Shown: piece by piece, positions 5,655 to 46,763 of the stretch
How the letters are laid out: each line of letters starts with the position of its first letter
Position numbering within the stretch: position 1 is the stretch's first letter
Assembly (NCBI GenBank): GCA_949948895.1
Contig: CATLHE010000005.1
Span: 2,306 to 66,305 of the forward strand
Length of the DNA: 64,000 nt
Direction of reading: 5' to 3'
Origin: an uncultured Christensenella sp.
GTDB taxonomy: Bacteria > Bacillota > Clostridia > Christensenellales > Pumilibacteraceae
Translations under genes and position numbers: made by a program
Notes under the pieces: model-generated
Database searches by the model: none
Told to the model about the DNA's origin: nothing
The model's input: the letters and a program-made list of their open reading frames with translations, nothing else

Positions 5655-5990
5655 GCGGCGGTTCGCCTGGATTCTTCGCCGTTGGCTCAGAATGACATAA
5701 AGACGGTAAGTAACGCGTTGTCAGGGAGTAGCAATCAACCAAACAATTTCTCAAATCACCGCCCCTTACGGAAAGAATGGCGTAAATAAATTCCTTACGT
5801 AACGCCTTTCTTCGGGCGTAACGCACAATCAATCACCAATGCAAACACACGACAAAAATCCAAGCTGTGCTTGGTCGGGTGTAACCAAGAACAAACTCCT
5901 CATCCCAATGCCCATTACGAAAAAGCGGCGTAGAGCAATTTCTTACGCCACGCCATTCCTCGGGCGCAACCAAAAACAAATCACAAAAGT
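5655..5990. repeat. Intergenic REP-like cluster (families A and B)
   Basis: GGATTCTTCG..CTCAGAATGACA at about 5670-5697; CACGACA-n5-CCAAGCTGTGCTTGG at 5848-5874. Confidence 0.75.
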
Positions 5991-6011
5991 AAACACACGA
6001 CGGTTAAAAAA

Positions 6012-7862
6012 ATGGAAAACACGAAGATCAGAAACATAGCAATAATCGCGCACGTAGACCACGGCAAGACCTCGCTCGTAAATGAGCTGTTAAAGCAGGG
6101 CAACGTGTTCCGCGACAACCAAACGGTCGGAGACCGAGTCATGGACAGCAACGCACTCGAACGCGAGCGCGGCATAACCATACTCAGCAAGAACGCGTCG
6201 TGCATGTACGACGGGTTCAAGATAAACATAGTCGACACCCCGGGCCACGCCGACTTCGGCGGCGAGGTCGAGCGCGTGCTGAAAATGGTCGACGGCGCGC
6301 TGCTCGTCGTGGACGCGTTCGAGGGACCCATGCCGCAAACGCGGTTCGTGCTCGAAAAAGCGCTGTCGCTCGGCTTGAAAATAATCGTGGTCGTCAACAA
6401 GATCGACCGCCCCGACGCGCGGCTGAAAGAAGTCGTGGACGAGATACTCGAACTGTTCCTCGACCTCGACGCGAGCGAAGAACAGCTGAACAGCCCGTTC
6501 GTGTTTGCATCGGCGCGTGAGGGCGTTGCGTCCAAGACCATATCCGACCGCGGCAGAAACATGCAGCCGCTGTTCCAAACGATAATCGAGCACATCCCCG
6601 CGCCGTCGGGCGACGCAAGCGCGCCGTTCAAAATGCTCGTATCGTCGGCAGAGCATAACGACTACGTAGGCAAGCTCGCCGTGGGCAAAATAACGAGCGG
6701 CACGCTGAAAGTGGGCGACGCGATACTTTTAACCAACTACCACGAACCGGACAAAAAGATCCGCAGTAAAGTAGTCAGCATATTCACGTACGACGGAATA
6801 AAACGCGTGACGGTAAACGACGCGTCGGTCGGGGATATCGTGTGCGTATCGGGCATTGACGGCGTCATGATAGGCGACACCGTATGCACGGAGACCGATC
6901 CCGAACCGATCGAGTTTGTCAAGATTGCCGAGCCGAGCGTGGAAATGACGTTCATGGTGAACGACTCGCCGTTCGCGGGCAAGGAAGGCAAGTACGTCAC
7001 GAGCCGACATTTAAGAGACCGCCTGTATAAAGAAGCCGTCAAAGACCTGTCGCTTCGCGTAAGCGACGGCGCGACGGCGGACAGCTTTGTGGTATGCGGC
7101 AGGGGCGAAATGCACCTTTCGATATTGATAGAGACCATGCGAAGAGACGGGTACGAGTTTGCCGTGAGCATGCCCAAGGTCTTGATCAAAACCATAGACG
7201 GCAAAAAGTGCGAGCCGATAGACCGCGTGTTCATCGACGTGCCAGAGGCGTGCGTAGGCACGGTCATGAGCAAAATGGGCACGAGAAAAGGCGAGCTCGT
7301 AGACATGACCCCGCACGGCAGCAGAATAAAAATGAACTTCAAAGTCCCCGCGCGCGGACTGTTCGGGTACCAATCGGAGCTTCTCACCGACACCAAGGGC
7401 GAGGGCGTAATGAGCAGCGTGTTCGACGGGTACGAGCCGTATAAGGGCGAGATAACACGGCGCGACTTCGGCTCGCTTGTCGCGCACGAACAGGGCGAGA
7501 GCATAGTGTACGGACTGTTCAACGCGCAGGAGCGCGGCACACTGTTCATAGGCGCGGGCGTGCCCGTGTACGCGGGCATGGTAGTCGGGCTCAACCCCCG
7601 CGGCGACGAGATAGTAGTCAACGTGTGCAAAAAGAAACACCTGACCAACACGAGAAGCAGCGGCAGCGATGACGCGCTCAAGCTCATAACGCCCATGCGC
7701 ATGACCTTGGAGGACTGCATCGAATTCCTTGATGACGACGAGATATTGGAAGTCACGCCCAAATCCTTGAGGATAAGAAAGCGCATACTCGACGTAACGG
7801 AACGCATGAGAGAACGCGCGAAGATCTTGGGGCTCGGCAAGCACGCGGGCGAAGCGAAATAG
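6012..7862 (+). CDS. typA: Translational GTPase TypA/BipA
   Basis: RNIAIIAHVDHGKT, ERERGITI, DTPGHADFGGEVER, GRGEMHL, LEVTPKSLRIRK. Confidence 0.97.
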   Translation: MENTKIRNIAIIAHVDHGKTSLVNELLKQGNVFRDNQTVGDRVMDSNALERERGITILSKNASCMYDGFKINIVDTPGHADFGGEVERVLKMVDGALLVVDAFEGPMPQTRFVLEKALSLGLKIIVVVNKIDRPDARLKEVVDEILELFLDLDASEEQLNSPFVFASAREGVASKTISDRGRNMQPLFQTIIEHIPAPSGDASAPFKMLVSSAEHNDYVGKLAVGKITSGTLKVGDAILLTNYHEPDKKIRSKVVSIFTYDGIKRVTVNDASVGDIVCVSGIDGVMIGDTVCTETDPEPIEFVKIAEPSVEMTFMVNDSPFAGKEGKYVTSRHLRDRLYKEAVKDLSLRVSDGATADSFVVCGRGEMHLSILIETMRRDGYEFAVSMPKVLIKTIDGKKCEPIDRVFIDVPEACVGTVMSKMGTRKGELVDMTPHGSRIKMNFKVPARGLFGYQSELLTDTKGEGVMSSVFDGYEPYKGEITRRDFGSLVAHEQGESIVYGLFNAQERGTLFIGAGVPVYAGMVVGLNPRGDEIVVNVCKKKHLTNTRSSGSDDALKLITPMRMTLEDCIEFLDDDEILEVTPKSLRIRKRILDVTERMRERAKILGLGKHAGEAK

Positions 7863-7925
7863 CCCGGGTCTTTTACGGCGCGAAACGGATAAGCGCGGGT
7901 AGTCGCGGAACGCAAAGGAGAAACC

Positions 7926-8522
7926 ATGGAGAACAAGCTCGGGATAACCGATGAAAAAACACTCGCCGCCGCGGAAGAGCGGATAGAAAAGAAACGCGCG
8001 AAAGAGCTTTTCGATTCGGGTCGGCTCGCGAAAATGCCCGTCGGCACGTACGCGGGGCTTAAAGAGATACATATAGCGCTGTTCGGTGACGTGTACGACT
8101 TTGCCGGCGAGCTTCGGACTGTCAATATCGGAAAGGGCAGTATGCGGTTTGCGCCCGCGGAATCGCTCGACAGCGCTATCAAGTTTGTGGACATCATGCC
8201 GCACGGCAGTTTTGACGAGATCATGGACAAGTTCATACAAATGAACAGCGTCCACCCGTTCCGTAAAGGCAACGGCAGAGCGATGCGGATTTGGCTGGAC
8301 GTCATGTTCGCAGAAGCGTTCGGCAAGCTCGTCGATTGGCGCACGGTCAATAAGGACGCGTACAATATAGCAATGGAGCACTGCTCGCTCGATAAGCGCG
8401 GCATTGTCGCGATCATCTCGGGCTCGCTCACCGACAAGGTCGGGCGCTCGATGTTCCTGAACGGTATCGACGCGAGCTTTGCGCTCGAAGGTCTGTGCTC
8501 GTACAGAACGGAAGATCTGTAG
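7926..8522 (+). CDS. Fic-domain protein, class III type (C-terminal auto-inhibitory helix)
   Basis: HPFRKGNGRAMR (Fic motif with K at the D/E position); C-terminal SFALEG matches (S/T)xxxE(G/N). Confidence 0.85.
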   Translation: MENKLGITDEKTLAAAEERIEKKRAKELFDSGRLAKMPVGTYAGLKEIHIALFGDVYDFAGELRTVNIGKGSMRFAPAESLDSAIKFVDIMPHGSFDEIMDKFIQMNSVHPFRKGNGRAMRIWLDVMFAEAFGKLVDWRTVNKDAYNIAMEHCSLDKRGIVAIISGSLTDKVGRSMFLNGIDASFALEGLCSYRTEDL

Positions 8523-8529
8523 CCAAGCC

Positions 8530-44992: not shown

Positions 44993-45199
44993 GCGGAGTT
45001 TATAGGCTGTAACTACAATCAAACGTTTGCGGCGGCGATTTTATCGCCGCCGTGACAACAATAAAACGGCGCGTCGTTCGTCCGTGCCGACCGTGAGAAA
45101 TTATACAAAAACCATGTCAAAACGGTTGTTATTTTACGGGAAATGTATTATAATTAAGACGAACCTACAATTCAGTAATATTTTTGGAGGACCATTATA

Positions 45200-46402
45200 A
45201 TGGCAAAGGCAAAATTCGACAGAAGCAAGCCGCACGTGAACATCGGTACGATCGGTCACGTCGACCACGGCAAAACCACCCTTACCGCGGCAATCACCAT
45301 GGTGCTTGCCTCCAAGGGTTTGGCAGAGCAGATGCGTTACGACCAGATCGATAAAGCTCCCGAAGAAAAGGCGCGCGGTATCACCATCAACACCTCGCAC
45401 GTTGAGTACCAGACGGCTAACCGTCACTACGCGCACGTTGACTGCCCGGGACACGCGGACTATGTTAAAAACATGATCACGGGTGCCGCTCAGATGGACG
45501 GCGCTATCCTCGTTGTTGCGGCTACCGACGGCGTTATGCCCCAGACCCGCGAGCACATCGTTCTTGCGCGTCAGGTCGGCGTTCCCAAGATCGCTGTATT
45601 CATGAACAAGACCGACCAAGTCGACGATCCCGAGATGCTCGAGCTTGTCGAGATGGAAATTCGCGAGATACTCAGTAAGTACGACTTCGACGGCGACAAC
45701 TGCCCGATCATCAAAGGCAGCGCGCTCAAAGCGCTCGAAGCCGCTCAGGCAGGCAAAGCCGACGATCCCGCTTGCAACTGCATTATGGAGCTCATGGAAG
45801 CTGTTGACAGCTACATTCCCACGCCGGAACGCGACGTCGACAAACCCTTCCTTATGCCCGTTGAGGACATCTTCACGATCACCGGCCGCGGCACCGTTGC
45901 TACCGGTCGTGTAGAGCGCGGCGCTATCAAAGTCGGCGATCCCGTCGAGATAGTCGGTATCCGTGCCACGAAGAGCTCGGTCGTTACCGGTATCGAAATG
46001 TTCCGCAAGACGCTTGACTCCGCTCAGAGCGGCGACAACGCGGGTATCCTTCTCCGCGGTATCGACCGTAAAGATATCGAGCGCGGACAGGTTATCGCGA
46101 AACCCGGCTCCATCACCCCTCACACCGAGTTCAAAGCCGAGGTGTACGTTCTTAAAAAGGAAGAGGGCGGCAGACACACCCCGTTCTTCAACGGCTATCG
46201 TCCGCAGTTCTACTTCCGCACGACGGACGTTACCGGTCTTGTCGAGCTCCCGAAGGGCGTTGAGATGGTCACCCCCGGCGATAACGTAACGATGACCGTT
46301 ACGCTTATCCACCCGATCGCCGCCGAAAAGGGTCTTCGCTTCGCTATCCGCGAAGGCGGCAGAACCGTTGGCTCGGGCGTTGTTACCGAGATCATCAAAT
46401 AA
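45200..46402 (+). CDS. tuf: Elongation factor Tu
   Basis: [44 protein letters not shown]. Confidence 0.99.
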
Positions 46403-46433
46403 TAGCGGTTTGCGCTTAATCTTAATCATTGAC

Positions 46434-46464
46434 AAAAAGAACGATCCGAAAGGATCGTTTTTTT
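46434..46464 (+). terminator. Intrinsic terminator after tuf
   Basis: AAAAAGAACGATCC-gaaa-GGATCGTTTTTTT. Confidence 0.85.
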
Positions 46465-46469
46465 GTTCC

Positions 46470-46763
46470 CAAGCCGAAGGCTTGGCGTCTGTCGTGTGCC
46501 AACCAAATGTTGGACGAATGTCGTGTGTTGGCGCGTGCGGTGTGTTTGAGGTAGCACCCGAATAAATGCAAAGCATTCATGGGTTACGATTGGTTTGAGG
46601 TTTACGCTTTGCGGCGGTTCGCCTAGATTCCTCGCGAGCTCGGAATGACAATAAATGATATGTTCCATACTTATTCGGGTGCAACGTAAAATCAATCACT
46701 CATGCAAACACACGACAGACGGTCAAGCGTAAGGCTTGCCGTGTGCCAACCAAATGTTTGTCA
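46470..46763. repeat. Composite REP-like cluster (families A and B)
   Basis: CCAAGCCGAAGGCTTGG-n-TGTCGTG; AGATTCCTCGCGAGCTCGGAATGACA. Confidence 0.8.

Follow-up and report, generated by a model that had tools for sequence, protein, structure and literature searches.

What are the short tagged hairpins that recur between the genes of a gut Clostridia species of the genus Anaerocaecibacter, and what spreads them? The original prediction, made on a stretch of 64,000 nucleotides of this genome (the window), described dozens of copies in about nine intergenic clusters, here called family A, and linked them to HUH transposases as a possibly undescribed REP class. The word CACGACA is indeed enriched in the window (40 copies vs 8.0 ± 3.0 in shuffles). 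Thirty-two of the 40 are tags with a CCAA-based hairpin 4-5 nt further on, and these fall into nine clusters (5848, 8545-8643, 14662-14793, 18861-19779, 25835-26195, 28004-28341, 34673, 40913-41471 and 46490-46717); the remaining eight are coding or chance matches. All five stems that had been quoted were recovered at their positions. The clusters, and the other modules found in one of them, are as follows.

5805..5881, plus strand: single family A unit 5' of typA, with a degenerate TTCGGGCG, a spacer, the tag (5848-5854), hairpin CCAAGC-tgt-GCTTGG (5860-5874) and TCGGGTG (5875-5881), which opens a decayed second unit (CACGACG at 5997)
8523..8700, minus strand: three-unit cluster beginning directly past the stop codon of a Fic gene; tags 8545-8551, 8608-8614 and 8637-8643
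14640..14830, plus strand: two-unit cluster; tags 14662 and 14793, last hairpin 16 nt 5' of the next start codon
18789..19800, both strands: 1-kb mosaic cluster bounded on one side by a stop codon and on the other by a -35 box; three units on the minus strand (tags 18861-67, 19121-27, 19287-93), then three on the plus strand (tags 19535, 19654, 19773; 119-nt period), hairpins facing outward
18950..18995, minus strand: SRM/NTS-like module X, not family A, the reverse complement of TGTCATTCTGAACGCAGTGAAGAATCTAGGCGAACCGCCGCAGG
19058..19101, plus strand: SRM-like module Y, TGTCATCCTGAGGCGAAGCCGAAGGATCTAGGGCGTAAGCCCGC, abutting the family A hairpin at 19102-19116
19562..19590, minus strand: REP hairpin with a GTAG tag (GGAGCGCAGTGGTCTGCGCTCC-CTAC on the plus strand), which accounts for the additional segment of the 119-nt units
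25812..26240, minus strand: five-unit array with 29- and 62-nt periods and one Y module; tags 25835-41, 26036-42, 26098-104, 26127-33 and 26189-95
27960..28362, plus strand: five-unit array, tags 28004, 28066, 28153, 28272 and 28335 (spacings 62, 87, 119 and 63 nt), ending 12 nt 5' of a promoter-like site
34640..34720, minus strand: lone unit; tag 34673-34679, hairpin CCAAGCC-ttt-GGCTTG
40870..41500, strands + - - - + +: six-unit cluster; tags 40913, 40944-50, 41085-91, 41237-43, 41438 and 41465
46455..46750, strands - - +: three-unit cluster with a central inverted X module; tags 46490-96, 46519-25 and 46711; contains the previously quoted stem CCAAGCC-gaa-GGCTTGG

The unit and its covarying stem

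The predicted order of tag, 4-5 nt and hairpin stands, but the unit is longer than had been thought. It spans about 70 nt and reads TTATTCGGGTGT, about 21 A-rich nt, ACACACGACA, 4-5 nt and a perfect 15-nt hairpin with a CCAA..TTGG foot. In its first part, TTATTCGGGTGT and ACACACGACA flank the A-rich spacer as an imperfect inverted repeat, TCGGGTGT being an inexact inverted copy of the tag; its second part is the hairpin. TCGGGTG, taken for an optional tail after the hairpin, instead opens the next unit, whose tag lies 28-29 nt downstream. The tag itself is real and highly conserved, but CACGACA is too short a description of it, the conserved form being A(C/T)ACACGACA, and it is not invariant: in 127 perfect hairpins picked blind to the tag, 106 carried it exactly, 14 with one mismatch and 7 with two or more.

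In the whole genome (1.86 Mb; assembly 94.5% complete) we counted about 260 perfect units, or roughly 290-320 with degenerate ones included. CACGACA occurs 483 times, and in 284 cases a perfect hairpin with 5 bp or more follows within 8 nt, as compared with 6.7% at random positions; 253 of 259 curated units are intergenic.

The stems show the covariation that had been predicted, with 95.8% of cells paired vs 76% in shuffles, and four of the six pairs show double changes. Perfect stems make up 265 of 288. When units were picked by the upstream motif only, all five Watson-Crick pairs were present in 201 of 247, and the top mutual information fell on paired columns. G.T and A.C intermediates exist, and stem pair 5 is G-C, A-T or T-A in the host genome and C-G in a congener, so that all four Watson-Crick pairs occur in the genus. 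Few independent events lie behind this signal, however, because it comes from a handful of discrete, amplified stem alleles. Conservation of the tag, foot and loop extends to species that are about 77% identical in the single orthologous gene compared, and four such species have the exact 27-mer CACGACAGAAATCCAAGCTGTGCTTGG in common.

Distribution, architecture and a possible host function

Family A occurs in 11 of the 31 species of the genus and is greatly expanded in the host alone, with copy numbers between species ranging from 0 to >250. A strict pattern found 161 copies in the host, 3-15 in five of 24 congeners and none in 16 other families of the order; within the same family, 88 genomes from 18 other genera lack the combination of tag and hairpin. 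A covariance model, as the original prediction had proposed, returned at least 151 copies in the host, 6-48 in eight congeners, single matches in two and none in twenty. The 1-kb cluster exactly fills the interval from stop codon to -35 box; the orthologous gap measures 1070 nt in the host and about 100-140 nt in the congeners G004 and G007, and the units are missing from the congener gap. Strain comparison, likewise proposed, revealed modules swapped within the species: one strain, with 98.7% identity in the flanking gene, has had the outer hairpin, third spacer and inner module of cluster 8523..8700 replaced and retains two units, while strains 99.9-100% identical have identical clusters. 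This is the one informative strain polymorphism, since public contigs break at the repeats.

Within clusters, units mostly run head to tail (115 of 160 adjacent pairs), with periods of 29, 62/63 and 119 nt. These arrays are not simple recent tandem duplications, as neighbouring direct units are barely more similar than random ones (0.72 vs 0.67). Inverted neighbours score 0.62 against the same 0.67, and no REPIN-like or TIR-like pairing was found. Strand transitions number 37 '-+' vs 8 '+-', and inverted groups have their hairpins outward.

The cross-species conservation of tag, foot and loop could reflect a function for the host. Family A might be retained as an insulator or a transcript-end signal (for weak bidirectional termination or mRNA 3' stabilisation) or as an array of sites for a chromosome-organising or DNA-uptake-related protein, with the inverted TCGGGTGT/ACACACGA pair as a dimer site. 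Read from outside the cluster, the outer units are a hairpin plus a T-rich stretch (ATTTTTGTCGTGTGTTTG), and several of them pass a loose terminator scan. Convergent genes show an enrichment of units between them (48), divergent genes a depletion (13/239). Also, ACACNCGA occurs twice per unit, inverted and without covariation, as a protein site would show. Yet a stem of 6 bp is short and, at about -5 kcal/mol, weak; the 63-nt unit folds no better than shuffles; and in at least one case (27612-27640) the cluster is preceded by the gene's own strong terminator. The hairpins face 136 gene 3' ends and 103 5' ends, and the outward orientation is seen on promoter sides too; orientation tracks place in the cluster and not gene direction, which favours a DNA-level property over an RNA function. 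The absence of the family from 20 of 31 congeners, with its copy number range, is more readily explained by a selfish element than by a housekeeping signal, and we regard a host function as unlikely.

Candidate enzymes

The link to HUH transposases was not borne out. On this model a Y1 enzyme, RAYT or IS200-like, would read the hairpin and cut single-stranded DNA at or near the tag, mobilising family A as a REP class, its gene being lost or absent from the assembly. The tag and hairpin layout, extragenic position and high copy number do resemble REP elements, GTAG-tagged REP hairpins lie in the same clusters, and a gene flanked by repeats is easily lost from a metagenome bin. Instead of a RAYT or IS200-like TnpA flanked by units, however, the host genome has no intact Y1 gene; its sole trace of one is an IS200 remnant of 45 aa, which shows that Y1 genes were formerly present and which lies far from any unit. 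No Y1 match was found in G004 (48 units, 96% completeness), and the Y1 genes of seven congeners are ordinary IS200 copies or fragments that do not track family A and have no family A units, TCGGGTG motifs or GTAG hairpins beside them. A Y2 (IS91) search gave zero matches in the host and equally zero in all control genomes, so that its negative carries no weight. Unit orientation has no GC-skew strand bias, the tag is neither GTAG nor adjoining the stem, and the dominant head-to-tail dimers are rare in REP families (PMC3733652). We consider this model very unlikely.

Family A units are interleaved with GTAG REPs and TGTC-tagged SRM/NTS-like hairpins, both of them kinds of repeat with ties to nucleases of single-stranded DNA (PMC11893778, PMC3733652). 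A small GIY-YIG gene, which the original prediction had suggested looking for, does sit in a cluster, but it is flanked by SRM/NTS-like hairpins and not by family A: read in the direction of the gene, the locus runs A hairpin, X, leader, GIY-YIG gene, inverted X-like Y, next A unit. This stand-alone, 95-aa, Ssn-like gene is single-copy. It is the sole Ssn-like gene of the host, is frameshifted there and is flanked by X/Y modules rather than A units, an observation that counts against our preferred explanation.

Family A could belong to such an Ssn system, in which the nuclease would bind the X/Y hairpins and cut a few nt upstream, in or beside A hairpins, the breaks driving copying and shuffling of A units, which would either play the part that 'RS' segments have in Neisseria NIMEs or be a second substrate. 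Published Ssn enzymes cut in the variable flank upstream of their own hairpin, and NTS-ssnA-NTS has an IS-like layout (PMC11893778). Fifteen of 31 congeners have one copy of the gene, and at most of 13 loci examined it is bracketed by species-specific SRM-architecture hairpins. X or Y abuts 41 of 259 A hairpins, one family A unit of A. muris lies with a 24-nt leader inside the loop of an SRM-like hairpin, and the composite X - A unit - inverted X is common to A. muris and the host. Against this, most A units, 62-nt arrays included, have no neighbouring X or Y, none of 259 fits the published SRM pattern, and the gene is frameshifted precisely where family A peaks. Presence of the gene tracks family A weakly (8 of 11 A-positive vs 7 of 20 A-negative species; one-sided p about 0.05, with species counted as independent and phylogeny ignored), seven species thus having the gene alone and three family A alone. 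Moreover, Ssn has been described as a restriction-like nuclease acting on incoming DNA, not a transposase (PMC11893778). We find it improbable that family A belongs to this system.

Family A among known repeats

Family A is best read as an undescribed, orphan structured DNA repeat class in NIME/BIME-like mosaics. The whole explanation, to which we give a probability of roughly 55%, is that family A is a non-coding, non-autonomous DNA repeat, restricted to one lineage and akin to the REP and NIME repeats of Gram-negative bacteria. The unit would work as folded single-stranded DNA, with a sequence-reading protein recognising tag, foot and loop and leaving stem pair 5 free. Spread and reshuffling would take place at the DNA level, via insertion beside or into existing repeats and via recombination at the conserved motifs. 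The responsible enzyme is probably not an HUH transposase encoded in the host genome; an Ssn-like single-strand nuclease is a weak candidate helper. Against this explanation, neither transposition nor recombination was caught in the act, nothing ties an enzyme to family A, and its units showed neither a definable target-site duplication nor a clean boundary. Its strong conservation between species, the weak tracking by the Ssn-like gene and the lack of similarity between inverted neighbours also count against it.

Rfam gave no match at E<=1, plasmid and phage collections held none, and we found no published description. The suggestion that the class may be undescribed is supported in this respect, for an orphan NIME/BIME-like repeat rather than a REP class with an HUH link. 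BOX elements of Streptococcus pneumoniae are modular, boxA-boxB(n)-boxC, in fixed A-B-C order. By description, family A resembles them as a non-coding, modular intergenic repeat with variable tandem modules in a Gram-positive-type bacterium; to our knowledge, BOX has no tag-plus-covarying-hairpin unit and no sequence similarity to family A.

As predicted, the tag lies outside the known REP classes, being neither GTAG nor a (C/T)GTC 5' of and abutting the stem (PMC3733652). The CGTC/TGTC-tagged superfamily is said to lack a dedicated transposase, has no reported Firmicutes members, and in its CGTC form places the tag 5' of and abutting an 8-9-bp stem with a CCA tail (PMC3733652). Family A is likewise an orphan hairpin repeat, its reverse-complemented tag TGTCGTG starts with TGTC, and GACG adjoins the stem in some spacer variants; unlike CGTC REPs, however, on the TGTC-reading strand the tag is 3' of the hairpin and 4-5 nt off. 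With REP/BIME/REPIN elements (PMC2817692, PMC3116915, PMC3733652) it shares a short extragenic hairpin with a conserved oriented tag, hundreds of copies, mosaic clusters, head-to-head groups, stems maintained by compensatory change and a lineage-specific distribution. It differs in its tag, a 7-10-nt word that is neither GTAG nor CGTC and stands 4-5 nt from the stem, in its AT-rich stem of 5-7 bp, and in a second conserved motif 28-29 nt upstream; its units are mostly head-to-tail, without a RAYT, and inverted pairs are not sequence-matched doublets.

The Neisseria intergenic mosaic elements (NIMEs) were reportedly described by Parkhill et al. in 2000 as RS segments framed by dRS3/NTS hairpins. 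Family A differs from them in that it is a tagged hairpin in its own right, with a separate inverted-repeat motif, and forms head-to-tail arrays without SRM hairpins between units. Its host is a Gram-positive-type gut Clostridia genus, and the SRM-like hairpin found there gave no match to the literal search pattern of PMC11893778. As with NIMEs and Ssn (PMC11893778), intergenic clusters are assembled from several short repeat families, a (C/T)GTCAT-tagged hairpin with an ATCYRG end brackets a single-copy GIY-YIG gene of ~94 aa, clusters vary by strain, and related species differ strongly in copy number.

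The repeat unit and its hairpin

In the 64-kb window the word CACGACA occurs 40 times, against 8.0 ± 3.0 expected from dinucleotide-preserving shuffles. Every copy was inspected with its flanks: 32 of the 40 share one common layout and lie in nine intergenic clusters, and the remaining 8 either are coding or do not follow this layout. The original prediction had cited five stems, all of which are present where it had placed them, and its layout of a tag followed by a hairpin stands, but the unit is longer than described, with an upstream motif and a spacer belonging to it. The consensus of this repeat (family A) reads tTtaTTCGGGTG-yAAC.yAAAAcaAAtCA...ACGCAA-ACACACGACA-(N4-5)-hairpin; the extended tag, A(C/T)ACACGACA, lies 4-5 nt away from the stem, with TCGGGTG 28 or 29 nt upstream of the tag in 197 of 218 cases. 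Genome-wide counting, which had been proposed as a check, bears the family out: the assembly containing the window (G000; 1.86 Mb, 24 contigs) holds 483 CACGACA words, 284 of which have a perfectly paired hairpin, 5 bp or longer, within 8 nt downstream (6.7% at random positions), and 259 units were curated, 253 of them intergenic as judged with a crude, home-made codon-usage gene caller. The description of the tag as invariant was too strict, since among 127 perfect hairpins picked blind to the tag the exact word was found next to 106, and a version with one mismatch next to 14.

The hairpin is always 15 nt long, with the foot CCAA..TTGG or CAA..TTG. Most copies are covered by the main stem alleles CCAAGC-TGT, CCAAC-ATTTG, CAAGCC-TTT, CCAATC-TGT, CAAAC-ATTTG, CCAAAC-CGT and CAAGC-GTAAG, and a further allele, CCAACC-TGT-GGTTGG, was found in a congener, so that the fifth stem position takes all four Watson-Crick pairs. 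An exact 27-mer, CACGACAGAAATCCAAGCTGTGCTTGG, is common to four species in which the single orthologous gene compared is ~77% identical, which shows that sequence is constrained as well as structure. The upstream motif TTATTCGGGTGT repeats the extended tag imperfectly and in inverted orientation (ACACACGACAAT reverse-complements to ATTGTCGTGTGT); the two can pair in the consensus, and this helix is part of the computed fold of a 119-nt unit. We found no covariation between the upstream motif TCGGGTGT and the tag at variable positions, so that the helix between them is not supported beyond the complementarity in the consensus. Judged from sequence, the inverted pair may be either a helix or a protein site present twice in opposite orientations.

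Covariation of the stem was assessed in an ungapped alignment of 122 distinct 30-mers. In these rows, picked for the presence of a hairpin, 95.8% of cells were paired, compared with 76% after shuffling; both-sided changes occurred at 4 of the 6 stem pairs, and pairing fell to 16-53% when the register was slid. Because the rows had been selected for hairpins, we applied a second test to 247 tags picked solely by the upstream TCGGGYR motif. Here, 201 of the 247 units had 5/5 Watson-Crick pairs, and the two column pairs with the highest mutual information were paired stem columns. Several unpaired column pairs likewise scored high, however, indicating that the stem signal stems from a few discrete amplified alleles and thus from few independent events. 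The compensatory changes of the original prediction are present, but they carry less independent weight than the number of copies suggests. With one mismatch allowed (n = 288), 265 stems were perfect and 23 had a single mismatch, including G.T and A.C hybrids between alleles; the G.T and A.C mismatches (4 vs 11) are too few to tell the folding strand.

Clusters, mosaic partners and exchange at loci

Genome-wide, the units form 99 clusters of at most ~7 units each, with preferred spacings of 29, 62-63 and 117-120 nt. Adjacent pairs are mostly head-to-tail (115 of 160; '--' 67, '++' 48), and among the inverted pairs the excess of '-+' (37) over '+-' (8) means that hairpins face outward from the cluster centre. 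Spacer likeness was 0.62 for inverted neighbours, 0.72 for direct neighbours and 0.67 for random units, so the clusters are not built as matched palindromes, nor are they explained by simple, recent tandem duplication; matched arms of the REPIN or TIR kind were rejected because inverted neighbours do not exceed random units. A recurring gene enclosed between '-' and '+' arrays was looked for and none was found. Hairpins face gene 3' ends in 136 cases and 5' ends in 103, with a polarity independent of gene direction; divergent gene pairs are poor in units (13 of 239) and convergent pairs are enriched (48). Family A may serve the host as a weak bidirectional terminator or an array of protein-binding sites, but termination is argued against by the weakness of the hairpins, by at least one gene having its own terminator ahead of the cluster, and by the lack of family A in most congeners.

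Terminal hairpins carry a -35 box in approximately 8 genuine cases (raw matches 14 of 259, or 5.4%, vs 1.9% background), an enrichment that is modest and in line with their position. In three species, a TTGACA -35 box lies 0-3 nt after the last hairpin of a plus array, in the promoter of the next gene. Array-end hairpins followed by a -35 box are found at:

Window 19797-19826
G000:C4:126276
L084 ~5215 (locus in congener G003)
L002 ~1605 (locus in congener G004)

Comparison of the genome with itself and alignment of ten loci showed A units interleaved with other modules in recurring orders; composites of the form A-Y-A-X-A occur at more than 10 loci with 75-86% identity. Module X is TGTCATTCYGAGC..GARGAATCYAGGCGAACCGCCGCA, and module Y is X-like in the opposite orientation. 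The third partner consists of GC-rich hairpins followed by CTAC, that is, GTAG-tagged REPs on the other strand. Those within family A clusters of the window have the classical REP layout:

Window 19562-19590, GTAG-tagged GC-rich hairpin (CTAC on plus strand)
Window 27859-27884, GTAG-tagged GC-rich hairpin (CTAC on plus strand)
Window 27912-27941, GTAG-tagged GC-rich hairpin (CTAC on plus strand)

The 259 A hairpins are followed or flanked by unique DNA at the cluster edge (83), a GTAG REP (41), X or Y (41), the next TCGGGTG (36), another CCAA hairpin (36) or the next tag (22). With the patterns used, no SRM-like hairpin interrupted by an A unit was found in G000; in Anaerocaecibacter muris, an X-like hairpin has one A unit with a 24-nt leader in its loop. 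X, 45 nt, an A unit and an inverted X form the same composite in A. muris and G000.

A difference between species was seen in the gap between an aminotransferase and a lipoprotein gene, which measures 1070 nt in G000 vs ~100-140 nt in the congeners G004 and G007. In the two congeners the promoter alone fills the gap, while in G000 a family A cluster starts at the stop codon and reaches the -35 box. Strains were also compared, as proposed originally. In a same-species contig whose Fic gene is 98.7% identical, units 1 and 2 of the cluster at window 8523-8700 are kept, but the outermost hairpin has CCAATCACAGATTG plus CAAACCAAATGTTTG in place of CCAAGCCTTACGCTTG, the third spacer differs, and the inner module is Y instead of a GTAG REP. 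This one strain thus documents module exchange, whereas clusters were unchanged in strains of 99.9-100% identity, and most look-ups were uninformative, giving no match or contigs broken off at the repeats. At window 8700-12000 an AT-rich island (37% GC vs ~53%) starts directly at the inner side of the cluster at 8523-8700, which has minus-strand units only, as if the island had inserted or replaced the other half.

The genome also holds repeats separate from family A. A 139-nt repeat, TCTCGGCGGCGTATGCATCGAACGTAGGCGAACTACG...GCCTACGCCGCCGAG, at window 14088-14226 (G000:C5:16393-16531) has at least 5 copies of 94-97% identity on contigs C2, C3, C5 and C7. A ~7-kb stretch, G000:C13:44600-51650, is ~72% identical to itself at offsets of ~67-70 nt and multiples, and probably represents a gene for a giant repeat protein. 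Elements of 270-290 nt with long inverted ends (e.g. TACGGGGTGGCGACCC...GGGTCGCCACCTCGTA) fall into several families, recur at 94-98% identity and look like MITEs much younger than the family A clusters:

Window ~35072-35375
G000:C10:61130-61419
G000:C14:32788-33076
G000:C5:98256-98539
G000:C3:74321-74600

Distribution and the search for a partner enzyme

A strict unit pattern gave 161 copies in G000, 3-15 copies in 5 of 24 congeners and none in 16 other families of the order; the tag plus hairpin was not found in any of 88 genomes from 18 other genera within the family. The covariance model proposed in the original prediction was built from the 122-row alignment and run over the congeners, and it recovered copies in G000 and ten of them: at least 151 in G000 (where family size was estimated from the pattern counts instead), 48, 29, 26, 14, 14, 12, 8 and 6 in eight congeners, single matches in two more and none in twenty. 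Among named genomes, repeated matches were confined to 'Clostridiales bacterium' HAN095-097, mouse-gut MAGs labelled Christensenella, and A. muris CLA-AA-M11 (G041), a cultured member of the genus with 26 units and an intact Ssn-like gene. The coordinates of the matches tie G041 to A. muris, which places G000 and its congeners in Anaerocaecibacter. Plasmid and phage collections gave no match to family A.

The original prediction had suggested an HUH-transposase substrate. A Y1_Tnp (PF01797) search of G000 gave as its sole match a 45-aa IS200-type remnant (C1:253029-253166); it sits next to tRNA genes in AT-rich DNA, away from any A units. Y1 matches in 7 of 24 congeners are IS200-type genes or fragments with no A units alongside, and G004, with its 48 units, has no match. 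A RAYT or IS200 partner was rejected on these grounds. Unit orientation likewise showed no link with GC skew (93+/112- on positive-skew and 25+/29- on negative-skew DNA), and the HUH model for family A is not supported. The Y2_Tnp (IS91) profile found nothing in G000, but it found nothing in any of 14 control genomes either, which makes the result uninformative. A DUF559 nuclease was rejected as well, being only the C-terminal domain of a 1233-aa ORF and not a small flanked gene. The small contigs C22-C24 hold no transposase. Contigs C22, C23 (1620 nt) and C24 carry a 385-aa reverse transcriptase, an ORF of phage structural type and a DNA methylase-like ORF; the reverse transcriptase has YMDD and LGSQVSQ motifs and by these appears DGR-like, and the contigs may be phage or binned foreign DNA.

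Besides what is presumably UvrC, a GIY-YIG search of G000 gave a relevant match, a stand-alone, frameshifted gene of ~95 aa inside a cluster, as follows, together with the congener loci of the same kind:

G000:C8:28988-29270 (outside the window), GIY-YIG gene with flanking hairpins
L133-L148 (loci in congener genomes), Ssn/SRM-like loci with GIY-YIG gene and flanking hairpins

In gene orientation the order is A hairpin, X, leader, promoter, GIY-YIG gene, Y, GGGATATTC..TTATTCGGGTG and the next A unit; the leader is homologous to that after X elsewhere. The GIY-YIG gene that the original prediction proposed to look for is thus present as a small gene inside a cluster, but its immediate flanks are X and Y modules and not A units. 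It occurs once per genome in 15 of 31 congeners; PF01541 scores 51-59 bits over the full length of the protein (91-94 aa). At most of 13 inspected loci, species-specific hairpins of the same architecture lie on both sides, their ..GCCGCA ends turned towards the gene. Ssn nucleases consist of 94 aa and have GIY-YIG as their single domain; NTS/SRM hairpins (CGTCATTCCCGCGMAVGCGGGAATCYRG) flank the genes that encode them, and Ssn binds the hairpin solely as single-stranded DNA, cutting a few nucleotides upstream (Chenal et al. 2025, PMC11893778). Module X (TGTCATTCCGAGCTTGCGAGGAATCTAGG) has the NTS/SRM architecture, yet it lies outside the published literal degenerate pattern HGTCWY..RNCYNB. The best reading of X and Y is that they are SRM-like repeats belonging to an Ssn-like gene, a type of system already known; gut Clostridia would thus seem to have an Ssn/SRM system with hairpins missed by the literal search pattern of Chenal et al. 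2025. A model in which Ssn acts as helper for family A is possible but weak: the GIY-YIG gene is present in 8 of 11 A-positive vs 7 of 20 A-negative species and so tracks family A weakly. A units lie within 700 nt of the gene only in G000, plus one each in G041 and G004. In a literature search on GIY-YIG together with REP repeats, none of the papers listed named GIY-YIG.

Interpretation and comparison with known repeat classes

The best-supported reading is that family A is an orphan, non-autonomous structured DNA repeat in NIME/BIME-like mosaics. This follows from its extragenic position (253/259), its orientation by cluster position and the huge range of copy number within one genus, and from its absence from an orthologous gap, the exchange of modules between strains, and the retention of foot, loop and tag while one stem pair varies. 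In both known tagged-hairpin systems, a folded single-stranded DNA site is read by a sequence-specific protein, and an A unit would be such a site. It is conceivable, though we consider it unlikely, that a dedicated ssDNA-recognising enzyme, neither an HUH transposase nor of the known Ssn specificity, acts on family A, which would form a third system beside GTAG/RAYT and (C/T)GTC/Ssn. Such an enzyme would recognise the tag together with the CCAA foot and the TGT loop; by inserting units next to existing hairpins it would give rise to head-to-tail arrays. As A. muris CLA-AA-M11 is cultured, and combines 26 units with an intact Ssn-like gene, the identity of the factor that recognises the units, and a part of single-strand nucleases in building such mosaics, become testable. 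The repeats also fill ~1 kb of some intergenic gaps, and short-read assemblies of these gut bacteria break there.

To our knowledge, tagged hairpin repeats come almost entirely from Gram-negative bacteria, and only the tag classes GTAG (RAYT) and (C/T)GTC (Ssn) have a proposed or shown enzyme partner. In GTAG REPs the tag abuts the hairpin, whereas in family A the extended tag stands 4-5 nt off the stem; the RAYT system has a single-copy Y1_Tnp gene flanked by repeats, and family A has no such gene. REPs form mainly inverted, matched doublets and rarely head-to-tail dimers, in contrast to the predominantly head-to-tail pairs and unmatched inverted neighbours of family A. CGTC/TGTC REPs and SRM carry their (C/T)GTC tag 5' of the stem and abutting it, so that family A differs in both tag strand and spacing, and none of the 259 A units matches the published SRM pattern. 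The Ssn (cd10448) layout, (C/T)GTCAT-stem-loop-stem-ATCYRG, is approached by SRM-like hairpins on both sides of the gene in most congeners, with the literal pattern unmatched; SRM flank the ssn gene on both sides, and here X and Y flank the Ssn-like gene while family A does not. IS200/IS605-derived PATEs have sub-terminal hairpins with a cleavage tetranucleotide, TnpA in the genome and an orientation tied to the replication strand, unlike family A, which has neither TnpA nor skew bias. As to TIR-bounded MITEs of DDE transposons, which have matched terminal inverted repeats and a target-site duplication, the arms of '-+' pairs are unmatched, and no target-site duplication was evident at the inspected edges. 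CRISPR arrays are long, with identical repeats and unrelated spacers, whereas the 'spacers' of family A are mutually homologous, its repeats vary and its clusters are short. Rfam 15 gave no match at gathering score in the 64 kb; for the clusters (9.8 kb) there was also no match at E<=1. A survey of REP tags has no Firmicutes members (Di Nocera et al. 2013, PMC3733652).

In summary, family A fails to show the defining features of the GTAG REP/REPIN, CGTC/TGTC plus SRM, IS200/IS605-derived, CRISPR and Rfam families. With BIME/NIME-type mosaics it shares extragenic clusters of several modules in recurring orders (99 clusters, recurring composites), and it appears to work like a REP/NIME-type element outside any described family, as a separate, third hairpin class beside the SRM-like X and Y and the GTAG REPs. 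This genus of gut Clostridia has both known tag classes together with a third, more abundant class, which is set apart by its own tag, another motif in inverted orientation, head-to-tail arrays and the lack of a partner gene.
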